Positions 50 through 30,443 of a stretch of DNA of 64,000 nt are shown in pieces. The notes under the pieces are model-generated. The model saw only the letters and a program-made list of their open reading frames with translations, did no database searches and had not been told where the DNA came from. A program made the translations under genes and the position numbers. Positions within the stretch are counted from its first letter, which is position 1, and each line of letters begins with the position of its first letter. The stretch comes from Bacteroidota bacterium (GTDB taxonomy: Bacteria > Bacteroidota > Bacteroidia > UBA7662 > CANHCV01): NCBI GenBank assembly GCA_947459245.1, contig CANHCV010000005.1, positions 4,820 to 68,819 of the forward strand, read 5' to 3'.

Positions 50-3043
50 ATGAAGAAAATTTGGTTCTCTACGCTGTTTTCAATCGGAATTTTTGTTTCA
101 AATGCGCAACCCAATCGTTGGAACAATGGTCCCCGCGACGATCGTTCTACCTGGTTCGCCATCACCCATGCTACCCTTCAGGTTTCGCCAAAAGTGCAAA
201 TTAAAGATGCAACTTTGTTGATTCGCGATGGGAAAATTGTAGAAATGGGGAAAGAAATCAAACTTCCCGCCGGTGCTGTTATTAAAGATGTTGCCGGTGC
301 GATGGTTTATCCTGCTTTGATCGATGCGTGGAGCACCTATGGCGTTGAAGTTCCTCCCGGAGGCGCTTCCCGCGGCCGCGGACAACAGCATGCCCCTGAG
401 CGCCCCGGCGCTTTCGCCGTTAACGATGCCATTCGTACCGATCAAACGGCCGCAGAACTTTTCCGATTTCAACCGGAAAAGGCAGAACGCTATCGAAAAA
501 TGGGAATCGGTTTAACTGCTACATTTGTGGAAGATGGAATTGCTCGCGGAACTTCCGCCGCCGTTTTCACCAGCACCGGGGAAGAAACCCAACTGCTTTT
601 TCATCCTTCCGTTGGTCGACATTTCTCCCTCAACAAAGGGTCTTCCAAAGAAGATTATCCTGAATCGCTCATGGGTCAATTCGCCCTGTTGCGCCAAACC
701 CGTGCCGATGCATTGTGGTACCAAAATACCAAACCTGCATTTCGCGATTTAGCTTTAGAAGCTTGGATTTCTACTGAGAATTTGCCCGACTTTTTTGAAA
801 CACGTGGAGAATACGATGCTTTGCGTTTGGCTGAATTGGCCAAAGAATGGAAACGTTCAGCCATCATCAAAGCCCAAGGGAACGAATACCAATTCATCGG
901 TAGTTTGAAGAATTATCCCGGTAATCAGTACATCCTTCCGCTAATTTTCCCCGATGCGAAAGATGTTGAACATCCATTGGATGCCCAGAATGTTACGCTT
1001 GCCGAAATGAAACATTGGGAATTGGCTCCGTCCAATCCGGCAGCCTTCGCTAAAAATCAAATTCCTTTCGCGTTCACCACCTCAGGATTGAAACCAGGGG
1101 AAGATGTTTTTGCCGCTGTTCGATTGGCCCTACAATATGGGCTGCCCTACGAGTCGGCCTTGGCGGCTTGGACCACCGTTCCTGCATCCATGTTGGGTTT
1201 GCAATCCAGCATTGGAACGTTGGAAAAGGGAAAAGTAGCTAGTTTTATGATTGTTACCGATTCCCTTTTCTTAGAGAATTCAAAAATTCAAGAACTGTGG
1301 GTTAATGGAAAATCGTTCGCTTTAACCACCATCGATTCCCTACTTCCAAAAGGAAAATACACCCTGAATTGGGGAAGTAAAACCTACAAGGCCGAAATTA
1401 ATTCAGGCACAGCGTTATCGGGGAAAATTTGGATGGATTCCACTTCATCGGATTTTTCTTGGCAACATTTTCAAGGGAACGTGAACGGAAGCGTAACGCT
1501 TCAGAAAAAATCGTATCGTTTGTACGGCTGGTTGAAGAACAACGGTTTGGAAGGGAAAGCCACTGCCGAGGATGGTTCTGAAATTCCGTTTTCCTTGGTA
1601 TGGAAAGAAGCAACAACCCCCGATACCTCCACCAAAACTCGAAAATCGTTGGTTTCGTTCAAAGATGCCTCGCCTTCATTTTTCCCGCAAATGGGATTAG
1701 GTGCTACGAAGCCATGGTCGGAGCAGCCGCAACTCACTACCCGAATCAACAACGTGACCATTTGGACCATGGGGAAAGATTCGGTTTTTGTGGGCGATGT
1801 GCTCATTCGCCAAGGAAAAATTGTTCGGGTTGGTCGTTTGGGCGACGTTGAAGACGTTGCCAACGTGATTGACGGAACTGGAAAACACCTCACGCCCGGG
1901 TTGATCGACGAACACAGCCACATTGCCATTACCCGTGGCGTTAACGAAGGAACGAGAAACGTAACGTCGGAATGCGATATCGACGATGCTTTGGATTGTT
2001 CCGACATCAACATTTACCGTCAGTTATCAGGCGGAGTTACCACCTCGCACTTGTTGCACGGTTCGGCCAACCCCATTGGTGGTCAAACCGCATTGATCAA
2101 GCTGCGTTGGGGCGCTACATCTCCCTTTGAATTGCGTTTTCAAGGTGCAGATCCCTTCATCAAATTTGCTTTGGGAGAAAATGTGAAGCAAAGCAACTGG
2201 GGAATGAGTCCTAAAACCCGCTATCCTCAAAGCAGAATGGGCGTAGAACAAGTTTATTTCGATGCTTTTTCTCGCGCCAAAGAATACGAAGCTGCCCGCA
2301 AAAAGTGGATGGCCAACGGAAGCAAGAAGGAACTGGAGCCTCGCCCCGATTACACCCTCGAAACCTTGGTTCGAATCCTCAATAACAAAGAATTCATCAC
2401 CTGCCACTCCTACGTTCAAAGCGAAATCAATATGCTGATGCACGTGGCTGATTCGATCGGGTTTAAGGTAAATACCTTCACCCACGTGTTGGAAGGCTAT
2501 AAAGTTGCTAAGGAATTGAAAGCCCACGGCGCCTACGCTTCTACGTTTTCCGATTGGTGGGCGTACAAGTACGAAGTGGTTGATGCCATTCCCCATAATG
2601 CTGCCTTGTTAACCCAAGCAGGTGTGGTAACGTGCATCAATTCCGACGATGCCGAAATGGCCCGCCGCTTGAACCAAGAAGCAGCAAAGACCATCAAATA
2701 CGGCGGGTTATCACCCGTTCAGGCCCTGGCCACCGTTACCATCAATCCGGCTAAAGCCCTTCATATCGACGGGAAGGTGGGAAGCATTGAAGTAGGCAAA
2801 GATGCCGATTTGGTTCTTTGGAGCCATCATCCATTGAGCATCGATGCGAAAGTGGAGATGACGTTGGTAGATGGAAAAATGGCCTTCAATCGGGAAGAAG
2901 ATGCCAAGAATCAAACGAGAATGCAGGCCGAACGCCAGCGATTGATTCTGAAGATGCTGGAAGCGAAAAAAGGGGGAAAACCTACTTCAAAACCAGTAGT
3001 GAAGGAAAAACGATTGTACCACTGCGATACGATTGGCGATTGA
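50..3043 (+). CDS. Two-domain amidohydrolase family protein, secreted. The six-frame ORF begins at 5, but the likely start is the MKKIW signal peptide at 50.
   Basis: The N-terminal signal MKKIWFSTLFSIGIFVSNAQ is visible. Metal-dependent amidohydrolase motifs occur twice (HSHIAITRG and DADLVLW-type segments). At 1012 aa, the length is typical of double-amidohydrolase proteins in Bacteroidota. Confidence 0.75.
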   Translation: MKKIWFSTLFSIGIFVSNAQPNRWNNGPRDDRSTWFAITHATLQVSPKVQIKDATLLIRDGKIVEMGKEIKLPAGAVIKDVAGAMVYPALIDAWSTYGVEVPPGGASRGRGQQHAPERPGAFAVNDAIRTDQTAAELFRFQPEKAERYRKMGIGLTATFVEDGIARGTSAAVFTSTGEETQLLFHPSVGRHFSLNKGSSKEDYPESLMGQFALLRQTRADALWYQNTKPAFRDLALEAWISTENLPDFFETRGEYDALRLAELAKEWKRSAIIKAQGNEYQFIGSLKNYPGNQYILPLIFPDAKDVEHPLDAQNVTLAEMKHWELAPSNPAAFAKNQIPFAFTTSGLKPGEDVFAAVRLALQYGLPYESALAAWTTVPASMLGLQSSIGTLEKGKVASFMIVTDSLFLENSKIQELWVNGKSFALTTIDSLLPKGKYTLNWGSKTYKAEINSGTALSGKIWMDSTSSDFSWQHFQGNVNGSVTLQKKSYRLYGWLKNNGLEGKATAEDGSEIPFSLVWKEATTPDTSTKTRKSLVSFKDASPSFFPQMGLGATKPWSEQPQLTTRINNVTIWTMGKDSVFVGDVLIRQGKIVRVGRLGDVEDVANVIDGTGKHLTPGLIDEHSHIAITRGVNEGTRNVTSECDIDDALDCSDINIYRQLSGGVTTSHLLHGSANPIGGQTALIKLRWGATSPFELRFQGADPFIKFALGENVKQSNWGMSPKTRYPQSRMGVEQVYFDAFSRAKEYEAARKKWMANGSKKELEPRPDYTLETLVRILNNKEFITCHSYVQSEINMLMHVADSIGFKVNTFTHVLEGYKVAKELKAHGAYASTFSDWWAYKYEVVDAIPHNAALLTQAGVVTCINSDDAEMARRLNQEAAKTIKYGGLSPVQALATVTINPAKALHIDGKVGSIEVGKDADLVLWSHHPLSIDAKVEMTLVDGKMAFNREEDAKNQTRMQAERQRLILKMLEAKKGGKPTSKPVVKEKRLYHCDTIGD

Positions 3044-4047
3044 TGAATCCCGTTTTGGTGGAGCAGTGGAGGGGAAATTTGGTTGAAACCCTTCACCGAG
3101 GTTCCGTTTGCGTGGCTGATGCCGATGGAAATATCGTATTTTCGTTGGGAGACATCCATCAAAAAACGTATCCCCGATCGGCCTTGAAATTCTTGCAGCA
3201 CTTGGTGCTTTTGGAAAGCGGTGCGGCCGAACATTTCCAATTTTCATTGGAAGAGATTGCCTTGATGGCCGGTTCCCATAACGGAGAACCGCATCATTTG
3301 GAAACGGCTCAACGCATTTTGAGTAAAATTGGACTTGAAGTACACCACCTTCAATGCGGTGCTCATCCACCGTTTTGGCCCGCCGAGGCCGAGCGATTTT
3401 TTCGACAGAATCGAACAGTCAACCAACTGATCAACAATTGTTCCGGCAAACATGCCGGATTTTTGGCCGCTTGTGTTTTTTTGGGATATCCACTTGAAAA
3501 TTATTTGGATCCCCAACATCCGCTCCAACAAGCCATCCTGAAAAAGGTGATGCAGATGTGTAAAATTACCGAGGAACCACCGGTGGCAATCGATGGATGT
3601 TCGGCTCCGATTTGGGGTTTGAGCGTTTACGAACAAGCCGTAGGTTACGCCCAATTGGTGCAACAAAGTCGGTTCGAACATGCGAGCGGGAAAGCTTGCA
3701 GCTGGCTTTTGGAGGCCGTTTCGGCCCACCCGGAAATGGTGGCTGGAACCGATCGCTACGATACGGAAATGATGCATAACTTGGGCGATCGGGTGGTTGG
3801 AAAAGTTGGGGCCGAGGGCATTTTTTGCTTGGGCTTCCGCCAAAAGAATTGGGGCGCGTGCATCAAAATTGACGATGGAAAAATGCTTCCACAATACCTC
3901 ATAGCACAAGAATTATTGGAGAATTTCGAGGAATTAACCGATGGAGAACGGTACGCACTGAAAAAATGGACCGAACTTCCGGTTGTCAATTGGAAAGGTT
4001 TACGTACGGGTGAACATCGTTCGAAGTTATCTTTGCCCCGTGAATAA
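3043..4047 (+). CDS. Asparaginase-family protein (L-asparaginase II-like, DUF asparaginase fold)
   Basis: The ORF at 2818..4047 has an internal ATG at 3043 that overlaps the upstream TGA by 1 nt (tgATGa). Residues from MNPVLVEQWRGNLVETLHRGSVCVADADG onward resemble the asparaginase superfamily. The 75 aa upstream of this ATG overlap the amidohydrolase gene and are probably spurious. Confidence 0.55.
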   Translation: MNPVLVEQWRGNLVETLHRGSVCVADADGNIVFSLGDIHQKTYPRSALKFLQHLVLLESGAAEHFQFSLEEIALMAGSHNGEPHHLETAQRILSKIGLEVHHLQCGAHPPFWPAEAERFFRQNRTVNQLINNCSGKHAGFLAACVFLGYPLENYLDPQHPLQQAILKKVMQMCKITEEPPVAIDGCSAPIWGLSVYEQAVGYAQLVQQSRFEHASGKACSWLLEAVSAHPEMVAGTDRYDTEMMHNLGDRVVGKVGAEGIFCLGFRQKNWGACIKIDDGKMLPQYLIAQELLENFEELTDGERYALKKWTELPVVNWKGLRTGEHRSKLSLPRE

Positions 4048-5062
4048 CATCTTGGATTTAAAACCCGTTCTGCACGGGCCTTCGAAAAATTTTTTCATCA
4101 CCACCCACCACAAACCCGATGGGGATGCCATGGGTTCTTCTTTGGGACTTTACCATTACCTCAAAAAATTGGGGCATCAGCCGTTGGTGGTTACCCCCAA
4201 CGATTACGGATCCTTTCTCTATTTTCTGCCCGAAGAAAAATCGGTTGTTCAATACGAAACCAATCCGGATACGGCTTTGGAAATTTTGAAGAATTGCGAT
4301 TACATTTTCTGTTTGGATTTTAATCGACTTTCAAGAATCAATGAATTGGGAGATGCTGTTCGTGCCGCGCAGCAACCAAAAATCATGATTGACCACCATT
4401 TGGAGCCGGAAAATTTTGCGCAATTTCAGTTGCACGACACGAAAGCGGCGGCTACGGCCGAGTTGGTTTTTCGAATGATGGTGGAGATGGGCGATTTGCA
4501 CTTGATGGATTCCGAAATTGGCACCTGTTTGTACACTGGAATCATGACCGATACCGGCTCGTTTCGATTTGCATCTACTTCCGCTGAAATTCATCGAACC
4601 ATTGCATTTTTGAAGGAATCAGGGGTAGATCATGTGAAGATTCACGAAGCCATTAACGACAGTTGGAGTTTCCGCCGATTGCAGTTCATGGGCTACATTT
4701 TATCCAATAAGTTAAAGTACCTTCCTGAAAAGAAAACGGCATACATTACCATTACTGCTCAAGAATTGCTGGACTACGAAGTTCAAACGGGTGATACCGA
4801 GGGTTTGGTGAATTACGCCTTGAGCATTGAAGGAGTGAAATTTGCTGCGCTAATTGTGGATCGAACTGTTATGGTGAAGTTGAGTTTTCGCAGCAAGGGA
4901 AAAATTCCCGCCAACGAGTTTTCCAGCAATAACTTTCAGGGTGGCGGGCATTTGAACGCAGCAGGTGGACAAAGTTCTGATTCTTTGGAAGTGACTGAAA
5001 AACGATTTTTGGAGGCTTTGGAACAATTTTATCCTCAAATTTTGAATGATGAAAAGGCTTAA
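4040..5062 (+). CDS. nrnA: Bifunctional oligoribonuclease/pAp phosphatase NrnA-like (DHH-DHHA1 phosphoesterase)
   Basis: The DHH motif (KIMIDHHLEPENF) and the DHHA1 GGGH motif (FQGGGHLNAAGG) are present. The N-terminal FFITTHHKPDGDAMGSSL segment is typical of NrnA. The start is uncertain; an in-frame GTG at 4040 follows the upstream stop at 4047 by overlap. Confidence 0.7.
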   Translation: MNNILDLKPVLHGPSKNFFITTHHKPDGDAMGSSLGLYHYLKKLGHQPLVVTPNDYGSFLYFLPEEKSVVQYETNPDTALEILKNCDYIFCLDFNRLSRINELGDAVRAAQQPKIMIDHHLEPENFAQFQLHDTKAAATAELVFRMMVEMGDLHLMDSEIGTCLYTGIMTDTGSFRFASTSAEIHRTIAFLKESGVDHVKIHEAINDSWSFRRLQFMGYILSNKLKYLPEKKTAYITITAQELLDYEVQTGDTEGLVNYALSIEGVKFAALIVDRTVMVKLSFRSKGKIPANEFSSNNFQGGGHLNAAGGQSSDSLEVTEKRFLEALEQFYPQILNDEKA

Positions 5063-8386: not shown

Positions 8387-8417
8387 TCCGGTGTCTGATG
8401 CTCTCGAAGGCACCGGA
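8387..8417. other. 7-bp inverted repeat hairpin (TCCGGTG...CACCGGA) in the divergent intergenic region
   Basis: It lies between the divergently transcribed genes at 8277 (-) and 8624 (+). No T-run follows, so it is not a canonical terminator. It may be an operator. Confidence 0.25.
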
Positions 8418-8623
8418 TAAAAAGCGCCCTTCTCCATTTTGTCCTTTTTTTTTGTAAACCTATTGTAGGACGAGACATACTTCAGAAATGAAAACAATCA
8501 ACCGGGACCAAGTCCGCCCCTCCCCGAAAGTAAAGTTAAGGTGTAGAGCCGTTTCAATCGTTTCCAAATTATTTATCTGCTTCGATAAATATCAAACCCA
8601 ATTTTGCTATATATTTACACTAT

Positions 8624-10333: not shown

Positions 10334-10505
10334 ACCACCAAAAACTTACAAAAAATACGGTCTCATTTAGATGTTTTATGGGAATAATTGACTAGATTGC
10401 TTCTGCGAATCTTGCTAACGCTATTTCAAATCTTTCAACCTTCTTGAAGAGTTGAATTGGCTGGAATATGGGAGTTATGCCTAGGCTAAAAATAAAACAA
10501 TTAAC

Positions 10506-11957
10506 ATGAATCAAATTAAAGTTAATCTTGGAATTTTATTTGTCCTTTTGAGTATTTCAAATTTAATGAATGGACAAACGACCGGGTGGAATAATATTGG
10601 GGGCAATTGGCAAAAAAACGGATATGTGGATGCGGCGGGTCCAACCACAGACAGTGTCTTATGGGAAACCTCTTCTGCCGGTATATTTGGAGCGCCAATT
10701 TACATTGAGGGAAACTACTTGGTAACCATGAGGTTTCAAAGCACAACCAATGCACCTGTAGAATGTTTTGATTTAACCACGGGGAATTTGTTATGGAGTG
10801 TTGACATTACTAATTCTACAGGACGGTCACTTCCAGTGGGGCTTCGCGACGGTAGGGTTTTTGTTATGAGGTATACGGAAAGCCAGAATGATTCACTTTA
10901 TGCCCTTAATGTAACAAATGGTTCTAAAATTTGGACCTCAAACGTGAATGTTGCTGCTTATATTTCCGAATCCGGTGTTTTTGATTCAACTGGCAATTTC
11001 TATATCTATGGAAATTTAAAAACCTACAAAATTAATCCTGTGAATGGGCAGGTGATTTGGTTTACCCAGACCGTTCCAATGGCCTCGGGTAGTGGAGAAA
11101 TGGCGATAAATCAGCAGAATAATACCGGGTACACCCTGGAACAAAGTGCAGGTGTTTCGTATGTATGGGCCATTAACCTGAACAGCGGATTAAAAAAGTA
11201 CAGAGTCCTAGTGCCTGAACTTCAAGCAGGTGGTAACATGCCTCAATCACCTTTAATGGTTGGAAACAACGGGATGATTTATGTTCAGCTTACCGAGGAT
11301 AATGTTTCTGCAATATCCGATGATGGAACTCAACTCAATTTGTTGTGGCAAACTGAGATTTATGGAAATTCCTCTTTCAGTACCATGTGTGTAGGTTCGG
11401 ATGGCTCAATTTATGCACCATCAAATGGAAAAATCATCCGTTTAAATCCGCTTACGGGTAGGATCGTTGATTCATCTGCTACCATTACGCAGGGAGGATT
11501 TTTTTCACCAAGAATTTCTGCAACTAAAAATAACATCATCTATGCAACCAACGGACAAAATGGTGTGTATGCTTTCGACCTTTCTTTAAATATGCTATGG
11601 TCAGATGTTTTGAATTTTACCAATACTTCCGGAGTTTGTATCGCAGCAAATGGTCTTGCTGCTGTTTCAGGAAGCAACAAAATCAGAGTTTATACCCCTA
11701 CAATAAAAACAGGAACTTCTGAAATGAATCATGTTTTAGTTAGGGTTTACCCAAACCCAACTACTTCTTATTTTATTATGGATGCAGGCAATGAAATCAT
11801 CGGGAATAGATATGCCTTGATGAATGCTAAAGGCCAAATAATAAAAACTGGACTTGTTTCTGAGCAATCAATTATTCAAATGGAGACATTTGCACCAGGA
11901 ATCTATTTCCTTAGAATTAATGGTGTTAATCAAACTTTCAAAATGATTAAACAATAG
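10506..11957 (+). CDS. Secreted beta-propeller (PQQ-like repeat) protein with a T9SS C-terminal sorting domain
   Basis: A signal peptide is present. Repeated SxDGSIYA / GxxxGxVxAxD blades are visible. The C-terminal VRVYPNPTTSYFIMDAG...GIYFLRINGVNQTFKMIKQ is a type A T9SS CTD. Confidence 0.65.
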   Translation: MNQIKVNLGILFVLLSISNLMNGQTTGWNNIGGNWQKNGYVDAAGPTTDSVLWETSSAGIFGAPIYIEGNYLVTMRFQSTTNAPVECFDLTTGNLLWSVDITNSTGRSLPVGLRDGRVFVMRYTESQNDSLYALNVTNGSKIWTSNVNVAAYISESGVFDSTGNFYIYGNLKTYKINPVNGQVIWFTQTVPMASGSGEMAINQQNNTGYTLEQSAGVSYVWAINLNSGLKKYRVLVPELQAGGNMPQSPLMVGNNGMIYVQLTEDNVSAISDDGTQLNLLWQTEIYGNSSFSTMCVGSDGSIYAPSNGKIIRLNPLTGRIVDSSATITQGGFFSPRISATKNNIIYATNGQNGVYAFDLSLNMLWSDVLNFTNTSGVCIAANGLAAVSGSNKIRVYTPTIKTGTSEMNHVLVRVYPNPTTSYFIMDAGNEIIGNRYALMNAKGQIIKTGLVSEQSIIQMETFAPGIYFLRINGVNQTFKMIKQ

Positions 11958-24398: not shown

Positions 24399-26006
24399 AT
24401 GAAGAATATTTACGCACTTTTTTTGATTTTTACCTCGATTTCGGTACTTGGTAATGTGCCTTTTCGTTTGTCGGTGAACCAGCTCAATTTCGCAACGTTG
24501 AACGAAAATTCCCGCGATAGCTTGCCCATTACCATTACGAATGATTATGCTGGAAGCCTTCGCATTCAGCTTCAATTTTTCGGGATTTTTCAAGATACCG
24601 CCTTCTCGGTTTCTCCCAATGATTTTACCCTTCCTCAAGGCGGTTCACGTACCGTTCATGTTCGTTTTGCACCCAAGCACAATGTTCGTTATGAAACGGC
24701 CATGATGGTTCAAACCACGGTTGGAGCGGGGTGGGCGTATTCTCGTCCGGTTTATCTTTCCGGAAACGGTGTTTACACCAACGCCTATTACGCAACATCA
24801 ACCAATTTAAGCGGTGAGGCGTTGAAGCAGGCGTTGAGAACCAAAATGAACCAAGGATTTCGAGCACTCTCTTACAACGAAGCCCGCGACAGCATGTATT
24901 TGCGGTTTGATAACTGGGCCACCAATGGTCGCGGAGCAACTTCCAATACCTTGGAATGCGTTTACACCGGTCGTCAAATTTCCGGATATACTTCCCGTAC
25001 TCAGGTTCAAAACACCCCGAACGATTTCAACTGCGAACACACGTTCCCGCAAAGTTTTTTCAGTTCGGCTTCTCCCATGATTTCCGATATGCATCATCTT
25101 TTTCCTACCGATAATAACGCGAACAACCAACGAGCCAATACTCCTTTTGGAGTGGTGTTGGGTGCCCCAACGTGGAGTCAGGGAGGAAGCAAACTGGGTG
25201 GCGGAGTATTCGAACCGAGGGATGTTCACAAAGGCGCCGTTGCTCGGGCCATGCTTTATTTTGGAATCATGTATGGCGGAAACTCCACGGTACAAATCAA
25301 CTATTTAACTTCTCAAGAACCCACGTTGAAATCGTGGACCAATCAGTTTCCACCCAATGCTGTGGATGTTCGCAGAAACAACGACATCGCACGTGCCCAA
25401 GGCAATCGGAATCCTTTGGTTGATTATCCTCAGTTTTTGCAACGCATGGGGGTTCTTTCTACCAATTCCGATCTTCCAAGAAGCAAAAGTTATTGGGTAA
25501 GTGCAACTAGAACCAGCAGCTCCACCCCCAGTGATGAGCACCGAATTTCCATTTACAACACCGGAACCGACACCTTGATTTTGGGTGGTTCGGGCTCCTA
25601 TTCACCCGCTAACGGATTTTTATGGGTGAGTCCGGGAACCACCGTAATTCCTCCCAACAGTTACAGCAACATGGGATTTTTCTGGAGTGGAGGCACCGAT
25701 TCCATTGTTGTTCCCACCAATAAAGCTGCGGGTGATCGGATTGTGATTCAATTGTTTTCGAGTTTATCTGCCGTTTCTCTTTTGGATGCCATCCGTTTGA
25801 ATAGTTGGGAGAATGAATGGGAAATCCTTGATTTGCCATCGGGTAAAACCTCCATTTCCTTGATGGATGTTCAGGGCAGATTGCTTCAGCACAAAGAAAC
25901 ATTTGGGAATCATATCCAACTTTCCAAGGAAGGATTACCTCTAGGGATTTACGTGGTGAAAGTTCGTTCCGAAAAAGGAGAACGCACGTGGAAGGTGAGA
26001 AGGTAA
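24399..26006 (+). CDS. Secreted endonuclease I family nuclease with a T9SS C-terminal sorting domain
   Basis: Endonuclease I motifs are present (CEHTFPQSFF, HHLFPTDNNANNQRANTPFG, RGAVARAMLYFGIMYGG). The C-terminal LGIYVVKVRSEKGERTWKVRR is a T9SS CTD. Confidence 0.75.
   Translation: MKNIYALFLIFTSISVLGNVPFRLSVNQLNFATLNENSRDSLPITITNDYAGSLRIQLQFFGIFQDTAFSVSPNDFTLPQGGSRTVHVRFAPKHNVRYETAMMVQTTVGAGWAYSRPVYLSGNGVYTNAYYATSTNLSGEALKQALRTKMNQGFRALSYNEARDSMYLRFDNWATNGRGATSNTLECVYTGRQISGYTSRTQVQNTPNDFNCEHTFPQSFFSSASPMISDMHHLFPTDNNANNQRANTPFGVVLGAPTWSQGGSKLGGGVFEPRDVHKGAVARAMLYFGIMYGGNSTVQINYLTSQEPTLKSWTNQFPPNAVDVRRNNDIARAQGNRNPLVDYPQFLQRMGVLSTNSDLPRSKSYWVSATRTSSSTPSDEHRISIYNTGTDTLILGGSGSYSPANGFLWVSPGTTVIPPNSYSNMGFFWSGGTDSIVVPTNKAAGDRIVIQLFSSLSAVSLLDAIRLNSWENEWEILDLPSGKTSISLMDVQGRLLQHKETFGNHIQLSKEGLPLGIYVVKVRSEKGERTWKVRR
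25980..26006. repeat. Gene-proximal copy of a 27-nt direct repeat (last 8 codons plus stop of the nuclease: ERTWKVRR-stop)
   Basis: gaacgcacgtggaaggtgagaaggtaa matches 28330..28356 at 25 of 27 positions. Confidence 0.65.
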
Positions 26007-26053
26007 TTGTTTCCAATGGAATCAATCGATTCGTGCTTGCTAGTACTGAATTC

Positions 26054-26080
26054 CGGTGCCTGAGGCTATCGGAGGCACCG
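26054..26080. other. 8-bp stem hairpin (CGGTGCCT / AGGCACCG, 11-nt loop)
   Basis: Seen directly in the sequence. It is part of the structured 630 bp non-coding region. Confidence 0.5.
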
Positions 26081-26092
26081 AAAATTTACCAT

Positions 26093-26202
26093 CCTTCGAC
26101 GTGCTCAGGGTCCGTCCTTCGACAAGCTCAGGTACCGCAGTCCATTGGTAATTAGTTCATTTCGTGGTTGCAAACGGGGGCTACCCTTCGGTAAACTCAG
26201 GG
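26093..26202. repeat. Three forward copies of the 17-nt motif CCTTCGnnnnnCTCAGG (26093, 26116, 26185), plus a GC hairpin GGGGGC...GCCCCC (26176..26214)
   Basis: The copies read ccttcgacgtgctcagg, ccttcgacaagctcagg and ccttcggtaaactcagg. A fourth, inverted copy lies at 26386..26404. Confidence 0.6.
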
Positions 26203-26259
26203 ACCTCCGCCCCCTATCCAAGTGTAATTTACGAAATTTTTTACTGATAGCCGTATCGG

Positions 26260-26306
26260 AAACGTTTAGAAACGTTTGTATCCGTTTATAAACGTTTAAA
26301 ACGGAT
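26260..26306. promoter_or_regulatory. Array of AAACGTTT palindromes (26260, 26270, 26290; a fourth at 26480) embedded in a larger inverted repeat ATCCGTTT...AAACGGAT (26280..26306). Candidate operator or recombination-directionality binding sites.
   Basis: Four identical 8-nt palindromes occur within 230 bp. This is far more than expected by chance. I did not notice this motif elsewhere in the window. Confidence 0.45.
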
Positions 26307-26385
26307 AATTCATTGAAATTATGGAAGATAGCATTTAGTTAGTGCGTGGGGAGGTTCCGAAGCATTTCGGGTTAAATTACGTGGT

Positions 26386-26404
26386 CCTTGAGCTCGTCGA
26401 AAGG
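26386..26404. repeat. Inverted copy of the CCTTCG...CTCAGG motif (ccttgagctcgtcgaaagg). It could pair with 26093..26109 in an RNA.
   Basis: The reverse complement, cctttcgacgagctcaagg, matches forward copy 1 at 15 of 17 positions. Confidence 0.5.
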
Positions 26405-26636
26405 TGGCGCCCCCTGGGGTATCGGTATTTTTTTGATTTATCCCTCGCTTTTTTATCCGATTGCCACCCCCAAATCGGGAAACGTTTATAAAAGTTGGTT
26501 CCGATTTATCCCGTACTTACGGGACACTCGACCACCGAAAAAACCGCCTTAATTTTCCATGAATTTTTTAAATGTCAAGGTATTTTAAAACTAATTTGTC
26601 ATTTGTTTTTTACATTTGAGCCAAATAAAATACGGA

Positions 26637-28304
26637 ATGAAAACGTTTTTCACCCTCCTCCTCGCTGCGATCGCTTTCGTGGCCTCCGCACAACCGCAAA
26701 AAATAAACTACCAAGGTGTGGCCGTGGGTGCCAACGGAAAACCCCTGAAAAACAGCACCGTGGGTTTGCGCCTTTCGGTGTTGGATAGCCTGCCTACCGG
26801 CAGCAACCTTTACACCGAAACCCAATTGGCTAGCACCGACTCTTCGGGGCAATTCTCCATTTTCTTGGGCGGTGGAACGGCCACGGCAGGAACCTTTGCT
26901 AACCTTCCTTGGGCGAACGGGAACGACAAATTTTTAAAATTGGAAATGGACGCCCAAGGAGGCACCAACTACCAACCCATGGGTACCACGCAACTCGTAA
27001 GTGTGCCGTATGCGTTGGCGGCGGGTACAGCCAAAACAGCCGATGTGGCCAAAGAATTGCAGATTGGTGCCCTCGTACGAGGTAACAACGGTGAAACGTA
27101 TTCGCTTACCATTGGGGCGACCGGCCCAACATGGGCGTGCATCCCACCGGTTACGGCAGCGAATGCCGGTCCCGCCCAGCTCAAGTTTTGCGCAAGCTCA
27201 ATAACCCTTACGGGCAATACCCCCAGCAATGGAATTGCGAGTTGGAGTATTCTTTCGGGTTCTGGCGGAAGTTTGGGAACGGCCAATGCTCCTTCCACTA
27301 CGTTTACGGGCGTTCGCGGAAATTCCTATTCGCTTCGTTACAGTATTTCCAATGCCTGCGGCAGCAGTTCCGATACTGTTGCGGTGATCTTGGCCACATT
27401 AACCACACCCGCGAGTGCCGGCCCTGATCAACTGAACCTTTCAGGAACTACGGCCATCCTCGCAGCCAACCCTCCCTCTGCCACTTCTAGAGAAACTGGA
27501 ACTTGGAGCATTCTTGCCGGCAGTGGAGGGAGTTTCAGTAACAATTCCAACCCTACTGCTACGTTTACCAAAGGAACCGATACTGCTTACACCTTGATAT
27601 GGACAATGACCGGCCCTTGCGGCAGCAGCCGAGATACCGTGAATTTACGTTTCCCTGCCCCGGTAGGATCGGCCTGCGGCCAAGCCGTCACCTACGCTGG
27701 TGAAAGCTACCCAATTGTACAAATTGGAACGCAGTGTTGGTTTGCAAAGAACTTGAATGTGGGCACCATGATAAATTTTTCGTCCTCTGCAGATAACCAA
27801 ACGAACAACAGTACAATAGAGAAATACTGTTACGACAACGACACTGCAAATTGCACAACGTACGGTGGCTTGTACCAATGGGCGGAGGCGGTTCAATACC
27901 AAAACGGAGCAACAAATGATACCTCTCCCAGCCCAGCCTTTTCGGGAAATGTAAAAGGAATTTGTCCTATGGGTTGGCACTTGCCCAGCGATGGGGAATG
28001 GAGTTCATTAGAAACGTTCTTGGGTGGTTCATTTTCAGGCGGTGCACTAAAATCCACCAGCAGTTTATGGACTTCCCCAAACTACGGAGCTACCAATAGC
28101 AGCGGATTTTCCGCGCTGCCAGCCGGGGCGAGCGATACTACTGGATCGTATAACACCATAGGAATCAGTACCTCCTTCTGGACTTCTACCGAGTTTTCAT
28201 CTATCCTTGCATATGGCACCCTTTTGAACTATAACTTTTCATTTGTCCAAGGGCTCAACGACATCAAGTTCTTCGGTCGTTCAATTCGCTGTATTCGGGA
28301 CTAA
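26637..28304 (+). CDS. Secreted protein with tandem Ig-like repeats and a C-terminal Fibrobacter succinogenes major paralogous (FISUMP) domain
   Basis: Signal peptide MKTFFTLLLAAIAFVASAQ, with the ATG at 26637 preferred over the TTG at 26616. Two tandem repeats of about 80 aa (xAGPxQL...WSILxGSGGS...CGSSxDTV). The C-terminal segment ICPMGWHLPSDGEWSSLETFLGG...GFSALPAG...FFGRSIRCIRD is the FISUMP signature. Confidence 0.7.
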   Translation: MKTFFTLLLAAIAFVASAQPQKINYQGVAVGANGKPLKNSTVGLRLSVLDSLPTGSNLYTETQLASTDSSGQFSIFLGGGTATAGTFANLPWANGNDKFLKLEMDAQGGTNYQPMGTTQLVSVPYALAAGTAKTADVAKELQIGALVRGNNGETYSLTIGATGPTWACIPPVTAANAGPAQLKFCASSITLTGNTPSNGIASWSILSGSGGSLGTANAPSTTFTGVRGNSYSLRYSISNACGSSSDTVAVILATLTTPASAGPDQLNLSGTTAILAANPPSATSRETGTWSILAGSGGSFSNNSNPTATFTKGTDTAYTLIWTMTGPCGSSRDTVNLRFPAPVGSACGQAVTYAGESYPIVQIGTQCWFAKNLNVGTMINFSSSADNQTNNSTIEKYCYDNDTANCTTYGGLYQWAEAVQYQNGATNDTSPSPAFSGNVKGICPMGWHLPSDGEWSSLETFLGGSFSGGALKSTSSLWTSPNYGATNSSGFSALPAGASDTTGSYNTIGISTSFWTSTEFSSILAYGTLLNYNFSFVQGLNDIKFFGRSIRCIRD

Positions 28305-28329
28305 CTTTGGTCCGCTCCCTGAGGTCCTC

Positions 28330-28356
28330 GAACGCACGCGGAAGGTGAGAAGATAA
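28330..28356. repeat. Distal copy of the 27-nt repeat (reads ERTRKVRR-stop in frame). It is the remnant of a T9SS-CTD gene end downstream of the FISUMP gene.
   Basis: The sequence is gaacgcacgcggaaggtgagaagataa. The FISUMP protein has no T9SS CTD, so this is not its own terminus. Confidence 0.65.
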
Positions 28357-28407
28357 ATTCTTTTTGGAACCTTTTAAAAGGCAATGGATTTTTAAAAGAA
28401 AAATCCC

Positions 28408-29982
28408 ATGAGATTCGTTCTTCTATTCCTCCTTTTTCCCATTTTGGGGTTTGCCCAAAATTTTGCTTTTAACATTGAATTAAAGCCTAAATCCATTTCA
28501 GGATTTCCTGGATTGCATTCCTTTGCATTAGGTCATTTTCAAGGAAAATCGGTTTTTGTTGGTGGAAGAACCGATGGAATACATGCTCGGCAGCCGTTCA
28601 ATGCATTTCCATCGACAGGAAATAATTTGCGCATTTATGTTGTAGATTTTCAAACTCAACAAGTTTGGAGCTCATCGTTAGCAGGGTTAGATCCCTCGGT
28701 GGTGGATCAGCTTCAAGCGACCAATTTTAATTTCATTCAAAGAGGAAACGATTTAGTGATTGTTGGCGGATATGGATTTTCGGTTCTCGCTCAAAATCAC
28801 ATTACACATCCCCGATTAACGGTACTTCCCCTCGATATCATTGTTCCTAAAATCATGGCCAATCAATCTTGGAGTTCGGATATTTTTTCCATTCAAGACA
28901 CCAATTTTGCAGTGACAGGAGGTCAAATGGCCATTTTTGGAGACACTCTTTGTATTGTAGGAGGCCACCGTTTTGATGGGAGGTACAACCCGATGGGTCA
29001 TGCTACCTACACTCAAAATTATACGAATGCAATTCGTCGGTTTTTAGCCCAAAGACAGGGTTCGTTGTTTCAAATTCAATGGTTTTCTCCCCTCATTTCT
29101 CCCGAACATTTGCACCGAAGGGATTACAATTTAGTTCCAGTTTTGACAGCAACGGGTGCGAGAAAATATGTAATTAGTTCGGGGGTTTTTCAGCCACAAG
29201 TTGATTTGCCTTATCTCTATCCAGTTGAGATAGCGGCCCAAAGTATTATCCCCGATACTGGATTCTCACAGCGGTTGAGCAATTACCACAGTGCAAAAGT
29301 TTCCCTTTTTGACCCCATTCAACAAAGTATGCATTATTTATTTCTTGGGGGAATAAGTCAATACCAATACCAAAACGGACAAGTGGTTGCAGATGCAACC
29401 GTTCCCTTTGTTCGAACCATCAGTAGGTTGACTCGAACTTCTCAAGGACAATGGTCGGAGTTTCCCTTAGGGATGATGCCGGGCTACCTGGGAGCTGGTG
29501 CAGAATTGGTCATTGATCATCAAAACCCGGCATTCAATTCCGATGAAATATTTACACTTCCATCTTCGAATCTTCCCGATTCTTTATTTTTAGGATGGAT
29601 GGTTGGTGGAATTTCGTCTTCCATCCCTAATGCTTTTACCTCTAATTCAACGGGATCAACTTCTGCAAATCCTTTGGTGTACGAAGTTTGGTTGAAAAAC
29701 AACCGGGTTGCAACAACCACGATGGAAGAGACTTCTCCTTATGGACTTTGGAATTCCAGCAATCAAGAACTTTGGATAAGATGGGAAATGAAAACGGGCG
29801 GACCTGTTAAACTTAGTCTAACTGATTTGGAAGGCAAGTCCATTCGAAAGAGGATAATAAAAACGGTTGAACCCGGATTCCGAGAACATGCATGGGATTT
29901 GCAAGACCTACCTTCAGGAGTTTATTTATTTCATTTGAGCTGGGAAGGCAAATCGTTCTCCCAAAAAATCCTGATTCGTTAA
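28408..29982 (+). CDS. Secreted Kelch-like beta-propeller protein with a T9SS C-terminal sorting domain
   Basis: Signal peptide MRFVLLFLLFPILGFAQ. The C-terminal KLSLTDLEGKSIRKRIIKTVEPGFREHAWDLQDLPSGVYLFHLSWEGKSFSQKILIR is a T9SS CTD. Confidence 0.6.
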   Translation: MRFVLLFLLFPILGFAQNFAFNIELKPKSISGFPGLHSFALGHFQGKSVFVGGRTDGIHARQPFNAFPSTGNNLRIYVVDFQTQQVWSSSLAGLDPSVVDQLQATNFNFIQRGNDLVIVGGYGFSVLAQNHITHPRLTVLPLDIIVPKIMANQSWSSDIFSIQDTNFAVTGGQMAIFGDTLCIVGGHRFDGRYNPMGHATYTQNYTNAIRRFLAQRQGSLFQIQWFSPLISPEHLHRRDYNLVPVLTATGARKYVISSGVFQPQVDLPYLYPVEIAAQSIIPDTGFSQRLSNYHSAKVSLFDPIQQSMHYLFLGGISQYQYQNGQVVADATVPFVRTISRLTRTSQGQWSEFPLGMMPGYLGAGAELVIDHQNPAFNSDEIFTLPSSNLPDSLFLGWMVGGISSSIPNAFTSNSTGSTSANPLVYEVWLKNNRVATTTMEETSPYGLWNSSNQELWIRWEMKTGGPVKLSLTDLEGKSIRKRIIKTVEPGFREHAWDLQDLPSGVYLFHLSWEGKSFSQKILIR

Positions 29983-30443
29983 CCCTCCAAAACGTCCAAG
30001 ATATCGATCAAATCGTTGAAATCTCGGAGGCCCACTTTTTCTTCTTGCAAACTTTCTAGAATGATTCCCTCGGGTTGAAACGTGGTTAACCAGCCCTCGA
30101 GTTCGTTGGCTTTTCCGGTGAAAACCATAAACTTTAAACCTTCAGGAGAAATCCAATGATCTTCATTTTTGGTGAAAGTGGGGAAATCAGCGGGGATGTT
30201 CGCACCATTTGCCGCATCCAATTGAAGCAGTTGAATACCGTCTTCCACCGCAGCCATGGGAGCATTCCCGAAATCGCCCAACAACAGCGGACCTGAACAC
30301 CATCCCAAAATTTCTTGGGCATCCGACAAAGAAATTCCGCCGCTTTGAGGATCCAGGTTCATGCCCATGTAGTCAAACCCATGCGCGGCGGCAAAGCGGG
30401 CGTCGCTCAAATGCGTAATGCCTTTGAAAAACTTTGGGATCAT
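29979..30443 (-). CDS. Phosphoribosylanthranilate isomerase-like (TrpF-like) small protein. The call is weak.
   Basis: The N-terminus KFFKGITHLSDARFAAAHGFDYMGMNL resembles the TrpF signature K-I-C-G-I-T...GAD..G-F-I-F. At 154 aa it is shorter than canonical TrpF. Confidence 0.3.
   Translation of the reverse strand: MIPKFFKGITHLSDARFAAAHGFDYMGMNLDPQSGGISLSDAQEILGWCSGPLLLGDFGNAPMAAVEDGIQLLQLDAANGANIPADFPTFTKNEDHWISPEGLKFMVFTGKANELEGWLTTFQPEGIILESLQEEKVGLRDFNDLIDILDVLEG

Follow-up and report, generated by a model that had tools for sequence, protein, structure and literature searches.

Why should the end of a gene be found a second time, behind the stop codon of another gene? The question is raised by a 64,000-nt stretch of the genome of a Bacteroidota bacterium (positions 4,820 to 68,819 of contig CANHCV010000005.1, assembly GCA_947459245.1; hereafter the window), in which the last 27 nt of an endonuclease I gene recur about 2.3 kb downstream, shortly before a gene at 28408 that we call the downstream gene (DG). 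The block between the two copies consists of non-coding DNA and a gene for a FISUMP-domain protein. Both the nuclease and DG appear to be cargo of the T9SS (type IX secretion system), whose substrates carry a C-terminal domain (CTD) as secretion signal. The answer, which we consider well founded, is that the distal 27-mer is the last remnant of a nuclease CTD that was displaced by recombination and subsequently reduced by decay and deletion. The features of the locus on which the argument depends are the following; loci of relatives, gathered by a scan of species-representative genomes and metagenomes, bear L numbers.

24399–25766, + strand: conserved core of the endonuclease I gene (signal peptide, Ig-like domain, Endonuclease_1, PF04231)
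25767–26006, + strand: predicted functional T9SS CTD of the nuclease, type A1 (Por_Secre_tail at residues 482–530; custom hidden Markov model, HMM)
25980–26006, + strand: proximal 27-mer, the true gene end, ERTWKVRR plus stop
26007–26636, no strand: non-coding region with hairpins resembling repetitive extragenic palindromes (REP) and repeats resembling miniature inverted-repeat transposable elements (MITE), ending in the FISUMP promoter/leader
26637–28304, + strand: FISUMP gene (TIGR02145/PF09603, by Pfam), Sec signal peptide, no CTD
28305–28329, + strand: the 25 nt between the FISUMP stop and a deletion junction, formed by the 5′ part of a REP-like hairpin and collinear with L018 3554–3580
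28330–28356, + strand: distal 27-mer, very probably the trimmed remnant of a displaced nuclease CTD, ERTRKVRR plus stop, non-coding
28357–28407, + strand: ancestral nuclease-to-DG spacer (TTTGGAACC...AAAAGAAAAA..ATG), aligning with the spacers of L006, L014, L018 and L019
28408–29982, + strand: DG, 524 aa, with T9SS CTD (Por_Secre_tail; CTD HMM, E = 2e-15), directly after the nuclease in L006 and L014

The degenerate 27-mer GAACGCACGYGGAAGGTGAGAAGRTAA has exactly these two sites in the window, and their number does not increase when up to three mismatches are allowed; matches occurred in none of 100 dinucleotide-preserving shuffles, the chance expectation being 0. The twofold occurrence, once at the nuclease end and once as a distal copy, had been proposed from the letters of the window alone (the original prediction) and is borne out by these searches. 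The copies are identical at 25 of 27 positions, differing by T10>C and G24>A. The proximal one comprises the last eight codons and the stop of the 535-aa nuclease open reading frame (ORF; 24399–26006). The distal one, which starts 25 nt past the FISUMP stop codon (28302–28304), reads ERTRKVRR and stop in its own frame, +1 relative to the FISUMP ORF, and no ORF of at least 40 aa ends at 28356. It is identical in the contigs of the same strain or species (L002, L003, L004 and L017). Its A24 is the allele of the working nuclease gene of L011, a strain 97.8% identical to the window, so that T10>C (Trp to Arg) is the only change private to the orphan. The L011 contig itself ends one base past the nuclease stop (L011 3661–3688); we considered it as a possible empty site, since its end, AGATAAA, shares A24, but rejected this reading because L010 also has an A after the stop.

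Many CTD genes sharing one end string would have offered a simple source for the second copy, as the original prediction had recognised. This is not the case: among the three CTD-bearing genes of the window (10485–11954, the nuclease and 28408–29982) only the nuclease has a matching end, and in a search of 5.8 billion proteins, which returned 863 homologues, the ERTWKVRR terminus was found in direct nuclease orthologues only.

The nuclease and the ancestral gene order

The nuclease ORF matches Endonuclease_1 (PF04231, E = 1.7e-33), and its residues 482–530 match Por_Secre_tail (PF18962) with E = 1.9e-5 and 25.3 bits, just below the 27-bit cut-off; the same part is matched by our custom-built CTD HMM (E = 5e-7). 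The nuclease is accordingly predicted to carry a T9SS type A CTD (PF18962) at its extreme C-terminus. Core and CTD have different relationships to the orthologues. The core of the window gene is 83–88% identical at the nucleotide level to those of L005, L006 and L014, and its alignments with all three stop abruptly at 25765/25766; the CTD is 52–53% identical to that of L005 and L006 (compared with 82–87% for the core), 79% to that of L010 and 95% to that of L011. The orthologues thus fall into three CTD types, A1 (window, L011, L010), A2 (L008, L009 and L019-like) and B (L005, L006, L014, P0004), decoupled from the conserved core at a sharp boundary; a conserved coding end, W-K-(V/L)-(K/R)-(K/R), is present in all of them.

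The original prediction had placed the block between the nuclease and the gene at 28408. In L006 and L014 (82–85% nucleotide identity) the nuclease stop is followed by about 50 nt and then by the DG orthologue, without any block, so that the direct junction of nuclease and DG, for which that prediction had suggested looking, exists. The distal 27-mer together with 28357–28407 (the window-type spacer being ATTCTTTTTGGAACC) aligns column for column with the nuclease stop and spacer of these two loci in BLAST and MAFFT alignments. Gene order and orthologous spacer therefore agree with the proposed position of the block and, since the stop codons occupy the same alignment columns, the distal 27-mer sits at the nuclease gene end of the compact arrangement. 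In L008, L009 and L010, too, there is no FISUMP gene between the nuclease and DG.

The position of the distal 27-mer, 52–78 nt upstream of the ATG of DG, might also suggest that selection has kept it as a signal, for instance as part of a promoter or leader of that gene, and it is indeed identical in three strains. Those strains are, however, 98.8–100% identical and hence too close to be informative, and L006, L014, L018 and L019 hold unrelated sequence at this place (a type-B gene end, or the orphan of another gene). A promoter and terminator scan of 25800–28600 found nothing near either copy, and the distal copy gave no fold signal (z = +0.6). We regard a selected signal as hardly credible; the distal 27-mer itself is probably inert.

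A longer orphan and the transfer of the block

The evidence that carries the interpretation of the distal copy comes from L018, a 5.2-kb JGI contig reached via the FISUMP cluster. On this contig a nuclease with an A1 CTD is followed by 516 non-coding nucleotides, a FISUMP gene 96.5% identical in nucleotides to that of the window, 362 nt, and DG. The 362-nt segment holds a called ORF of 64 aa (MTLGVVGSSGCKTSISLMDVQGRMLQHKETFGNQIQLSKEGLPQGIYVVKVRSEKGERTWKLKK, then stop) with a Por_Secre_tail match (PF18962; custom HMM, E = 6e-9). At L018 3732–3895 lies a 164-nt direct repeat of the end of L018's own nuclease, with five mismatches (97% identity), four of them in the last 17 nt, which leaves one mismatch in 150 nt. 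The 73 nt upstream of this repeat align with the 5′ part of the nuclease CTDs of L010 and L009 (scores 27 and 26; shuffle mean 8.4, standard deviation 1.6) but not with L018's own proximal CTD (score 10). Taken together, repeat and 73 nt show that the L018 orphan comprises about 237 of the 240 nt of a CTD, starting at the core/CTD boundary, with indels in its 5′ part. It is a former C-terminal fragment lying downstream without a core, of which the window retains 27 nt. The original prediction of an orphaned nuclease gene end is supported by this near-complete CTD as well as by the stop position in L006 and L014.

That the copies evolve in concert is seen at position 6 of the 27-mer, where the window has C in each of them and L018 has G in each, the base also found in L011 and L010.

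A rival origin is duplication in tandem, either of the whole nuclease gene or of just its 3′ part, with the second core subsequently lost, non-coding DNA and FISUMP inserted independently between the copies, and the 27-mer left over from the second copy. It would fit the near-identity of the 3′ parts in L018, and it likewise leads one to expect a partial second CTD where the ancestral stop lay. It leaves several observations unaccounted for, though. No trace of a nuclease core is present upstream of the L018 orphan; the start of the orphan coincides with the core/CTD boundary, and so with the breakpoint of the type switch; its 5′ 73 nt are of another CTD type than the proximal copy; and, as set out below, in L018 the block can be seen to have entered a genome through recombination at this boundary. 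A tandem duplication is thus unlikely.

Alternatively, because CTDs form a large paralogous family and the 5′ part of the L018 orphan is unlike the adjacent nuclease CTD, the distal copy might derive from a different T9SS cargo gene that once lay between FISUMP and the gene at 28408. Yet this 5′ part matches nuclease CTDs, namely those of L010 and L009, and the 3′ part is 97–99% identical to the nuclease; the orphan's stop stands at the position of the L006/L014 nuclease stop. Together with the restriction of the ERTWKVRR end to nuclease orthologues and the lack of a match in the window's other two CTD genes, this makes an origin from another cargo gene very improbable.

L018 is a mosaic. Its backbone is 97% identical to L006, and in 60-nt windows its nuclease core is 92–100% identical to that of L006 until 240 nt before the stop. 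From this point onward it is 93–100% identical to the window and L011, and with the last 17 nt of the orphan, the spacer and DG it becomes L006/L014-like again (95–97%). The left junction lies in the nuclease at the core/CTD boundary, inside a 26-nt stretch that is identical across all lineages, and the right junction at the 7-nt GTGGAAG shared by A1 and B ends, 17 nt before the stop. This mosaic implies that a type-B genome swapped its own CTD for a whole A1 block consisting of CTD, non-coding DNA, FISUMP and orphan. L018 is a genome of foreign backbone that imported the block by recombination at the 26-nt stretch and the 7-nt microhomology. Both a homologous anchor and a microhomology, as expected of homology-facilitated illegitimate recombination, are thus present in this secondary transfer; it is the secondary transfer, and not the founding event, to which this applies.

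The comparison with L018 also accounts for the shortness of the window's orphan. L018 1842–3580 corresponds to window 26593–28331, and L018 from 3867 onward to the window from 28330 onward, so that L018 3581–3866 (286 nt) is missing from the window; the junction shows a 2-nt GA overlap within similar GAACG contexts. An insertion that happened to extend the 27-mer into a collinear CTD is implausible, and the window therefore represents the derived state: a deletion that reached into the orphan from the REP-like hairpin behind FISUMP cut it down to its last 27 nt. This explains why the bases to the left of the distal 27-mer look like half of a REP: segment 28305–28329 is similar to 26052–26078, and a motif match extends over 28317–28334 on the − strand. 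The repeat accordingly has no constant length: it measures 27 nt in the window as well as in L004 and L017, but no less than 164 nt (164–237) in L018; gene coordinates on the P0122 contig point to a third spacing. The figure of 27 nt has no meaning of its own and is what the later 286-nt deletion left over. We also considered the 27-mer as part of a REP-like element, since the REP 3′ half TCGAAGGCACCG and the hairpin loops CGAACGAAGTGAGA resemble its first bases; it is, however, genuine conserved coding sequence, and the resemblance probably did no more than supply microhomology for the deletion.

Integrative elements may target the 3′ end of a gene, as with att sites in tRNA genes, and restore the gene with an element-borne copy. 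The window locus resembles their products in that a direct repeat taken from a gene 3′ end brackets inserted DNA while the gene is intact. The 27-mers could accordingly be read as attL and attR, or as a target-site duplication, of a mobile or mobilisable element carrying the structured region and FISUMP; the gene-sized block does contain inverted repeats. But the block encodes FISUMP only, and neither integrase nor transposase occurs within about 10 kb on either side (gene tables 14399–39982). Core and arm sites are lacking, the repeat measures 27 nt in one carrier and 164–237 nt in another, and the distal copy has its left edge at a junction created by the later deletion. Furthermore, the internal non-coding part differs between carriers, no further copy of the block or of the 27-mer is present in the window, and the L018 junctions lie in ordinary homologous sequence. 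An element of this kind is extremely improbable: the feature is an evolutionary scar, not a mobile element.

Under C-terminal displacement, the preferred reading, a segment comprising a functional CTD and its stop, repeat-rich non-coding DNA, FISUMP and a trailing REP-like hairpin would have entered between the nuclease core and the earlier CTD. The nuclease would have retained a working secretion signal, supplied by the incoming CTD, and the earlier CTD would have been moved about 2.6 kb downstream, beside the spacer and DG. There it would have decayed, its 5′ part gaining indels, while its 3′ 150–160 nt may have been held near-identical to the working copy, most simply through gene conversion. 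Finally, in the window lineage, the 286-nt deletion from the REP-like hairpin into the orphan spared the final 27 nt. As a likely route we envisage a recombination event for which homology within the nuclease gene provided the anchor, the other end being joined illegitimately or through short homology. Either homology-facilitated illegitimate recombination or a single crossover with a circular intermediate could have brought this about.

Several points weigh against this scheme. Its earliest event was not observed: a donor-type strain from the species of the window, in which a long orphan precedes the window-type spacer, was not recovered, and L018 shows the long orphan only after transfer into another backbone. 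The non-coding region is already found 3′ of the nuclease in L010, L008, L009 and L019, which are free of FISUMP; the arrival of the one may therefore have been a separate event from that of the other. Either type B or type A may be the ancestral CTD, and the near-identity of the proximal and distal 3′ parts could reflect recent duplication instead of gene conversion. The strict microhomology at the deletion junction is only 2 nt, as judged against L018. Lastly, this is an uncultured lineage represented by metagenome-assembled genomes (MAGs) only, without known natural transformation or another DNA-uptake route.

The FISUMP gene, the non-coding region and other scars

The sole Pfam match of ORF 26637–28304 is PF09603 (Fib_succ_major; residues 361–554, E = 1.6e-34, 120.2 bits against a cut-off of 33.9). 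Neither Pfam nor the custom CTD HMM finds a CTD in the protein, in agreement with what had been stated of it originally. The closest FISUMP orthologue (80% amino acid identity) is encoded in a sister MAG, which is also the source of L005, at the unrelated locus L012, between a CarbopepD_reg gene/recA and moaC. We rejected a transfer of FISUMP as a block from that locus, since homology ends at ATG−2 and about 106 nt before the stop and the flanks did not travel with the gene. Compared with P0124 (L012 10001–11692), the window protein is itself a mosaic, about 98% identical over residues 121–360 and about 55% over the C-terminal 115 residues, a pattern suggestive of exchange between FISUMP paralogues. 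Position 27878, where two independent Logan contigs begin, lies within the conserved GGLYQWAEA segment.

The 630 nt of 26007–26636 fold better than shuffled sequences (z = −5.0, 20 shuffles), and no credible RNA family was found in Rfam, either in a gathering-threshold scan of the whole window or in an E-value scan of 25900–26700. Two parts of the region stand out.

26052–26080, + strand: REP-like hairpin GGTGCCTGAGGCTATCGGAGGCACC (−15.3 kcal/mol, z = −2.9)
26089–26407, no strand: segment between 25-nt inverted repeats, with CCTTCGAC..CTCAGGG motifs and a AAACGTTT array (26258–26309)

Members of the hairpin family occur at window 8388–8416 and in L010, L008 and L018. Within the window both motifs are confined to the non-coding region, with five copies of CCTTCGAC..CTCAGGG against 0.2 expected and nine of AAACGTTT against 1.5 expected; both recur at other loci of the relatives, in either orientation. 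The core element 26170–26301 is present inverted in L008, L012 and L018. Breaks at 26269, 26376 and 27878 in independent assemblies of the same strain are what one expects of repeats.

The original prediction had raised the possibility that the 630-bp region marks a discrete element or element family. This part is not supported. Pieces of the region are dispersed at loci without such junctions, and the region differs between carriers whose FISUMP genes are 96.5% identical: 26097–26592 is mostly not common to the window and L018. Its left end is linked to the nuclease in L010, 26007–26080 being orthologous to L010 and L018; these first 75 nt or so, with the hairpin GGTGCCTGAGG...GGCACC, already stand 3′ of the nuclease in L010 (80% identity) and L018.

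Several repeat families of the region were noted in passing. A dispersed element of about 130 nt (window 26170–26301, L012 9557–9694, L008 2523–2644, L018 1660–1735) contains several AAACGTTT palindromes at 10-bp spacing, which presumably resemble LacI-family half-sites, and a GC-rich hairpin. It lies 300–340 nt upstream of FISUMP genes at two unrelated loci. In the window it is inverted with respect to the three relatives and flanked by the 25-nt inverted repeats (26089–26113 and 26383–26407); it may be a segment capable of inversion, or else a MITE that has inserted in either orientation. A 77-nt module (GGGAAACGTTTATAAA..hairpin..ACTCGACCACCGAAAAAAC), found at window 26468–26544, L008 2769–2845, L009 1969–2041 and L010 1159–1229, is about 80% conserved across species, and the sequence of its hairpin changes with the pairing kept (CCCGTACTTACGGG versus CCGCCGTTTGGCGG); it may be a small structured element without an Rfam match. 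Window 8388–8545 is a second intergenic patch of the same repeat families, with hairpin CCGGTGTCTGATGCTCTCGAAGGCACCGG and a segment similar to L008 2444–2505 and L018 1601–1650. Finally, tandem REP-like hairpin units (GTTCCTCGAGTG..CGAA..GTGAGA..ATCGAGAGGAAC) fill the DNA past stop codons in this clade, as at L019 5689–5860 (three copies, 98–99% identity, 62-nt spacing), L012 11720–12030 and L009 1820–1870.

Orphaned gene ends also occur beside DG. In L019, L020 and L021 the 3′ end of a convergent 154-aa gene is found on both sides of DG, as a direct repeat of 75 nt and 96% identity (L019 5884–5958 and 7574–7648, the latter corresponding to window 29981–30055), a second orphaned gene end that is absent from the window. 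In L005, from the sister MAG, DG is missing apart from roughly its final 14 nt (TCTACATTCGTTAA, about 11683–11700), which stand before the 154-aa gene, so that the absence of DG there is a secondary deletion. The repeat of the L019 type and the L005 remnant are independent orphaned gene ends produced by insertion and deletion between conserved neighbours. No orphan CTD other than that of L018 was found when the window and 187 kb of fetched loci (about 250 kb in total) were scanned with the CTD HMM. Just upstream of the DG spacer, L009 2223–2239 and L008 at about 3030–3046 match the type-B nuclease end (AGTTGAAAAAGTGATTT) at 15 of 17 positions in genomes that carry an A2-CTD nuclease. An older, decayed orphan was considered here and rejected as too weak (E = 0.089 in a 595-nt target) and AT-rich; the match is suggestive only.

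Probable C-terminal displacement outside toxin loci

In rhs loci, acquired C-terminal tips displace the old ones, which persist downstream as orphans (Jackson et al. 2009, PMC2935791); modules of the cdiA-CT/cdiI and rhs-CT kinds that occur as orphans are attributed to Poole et al. 2011 as that work is cited in PMC5361080. As at the window locus, a core and a variable C-terminus are decoupled in rhs and cdiA at a sharp boundary within a short conserved stretch, a laterally acquired C-terminus with downstream DNA displaces the old one, and the latter survives downstream without promoter or core; transfer across lineages is likewise common to both. The displaced part of the nuclease, however, is a T9SS type A CTD secretion signal and not a toxin tip, and it has no immunity gene. 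The next gene encodes a FISUMP protein with a signal peptide, which together with repeat-rich non-coding DNA forms the cargo. There is, moreover, a single orphan instead of an array, and no benefit from conflict-driven diversification is evident. In its working the window locus hence resembles C-terminal displacement, although it does not belong to the toxin families.

For effector–immunity modules of the Vibrio cholerae T6SS (type VI secretion system), sequential displacement has been proposed to occur via homology-facilitated illegitimate recombination (PMC5361080). The likeness lies in the one-sided homologous anchor in a conserved upstream gene, the non-homologous join downstream and the remnants of the older gene's 3′ end that are shifted downstream. 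The secretion system and the selective logic differ, and the 7-nt microhomology junction mapped in L018 is known here from sequence alone.

C-terminal displacement is thus known for rhs, contact-dependent inhibition (CDI) and T6SS loci; what is new here is its probable occurrence in the secretion-signal domain of a T9SS cargo gene. It is tempting to speculate, if only tentatively, that T9SS cargo genes diversify generally in this manner, the boundary stretch and the CTD end serving as recombination handles, the CTD being swapped between species together with downstream DNA, and orphans exchanging with working copies by gene conversion.

At the window locus itself the consequence is modest, since the nuclease, FISUMP and DG all look intact. 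Even so, the locus shows how one may interpret a short 'duplicated gene end' as a dated recombination scar, and it illustrates in detail, both junctions being mapped, how a block crossed between related lineages of freshwater Bacteroidota via homology in a T9SS cargo gene. If orphan CTDs prove to be common, the secretion-signal domain of T9SS substrates would have to be added to the rhs, CDI and T6SS toxins for which modular exchange is known, and this would bear on the evolution of cargo repertoires, on CTD-based cargo prediction for short ORFs consisting of a CTD only, and on assembly breaks in MAGs.

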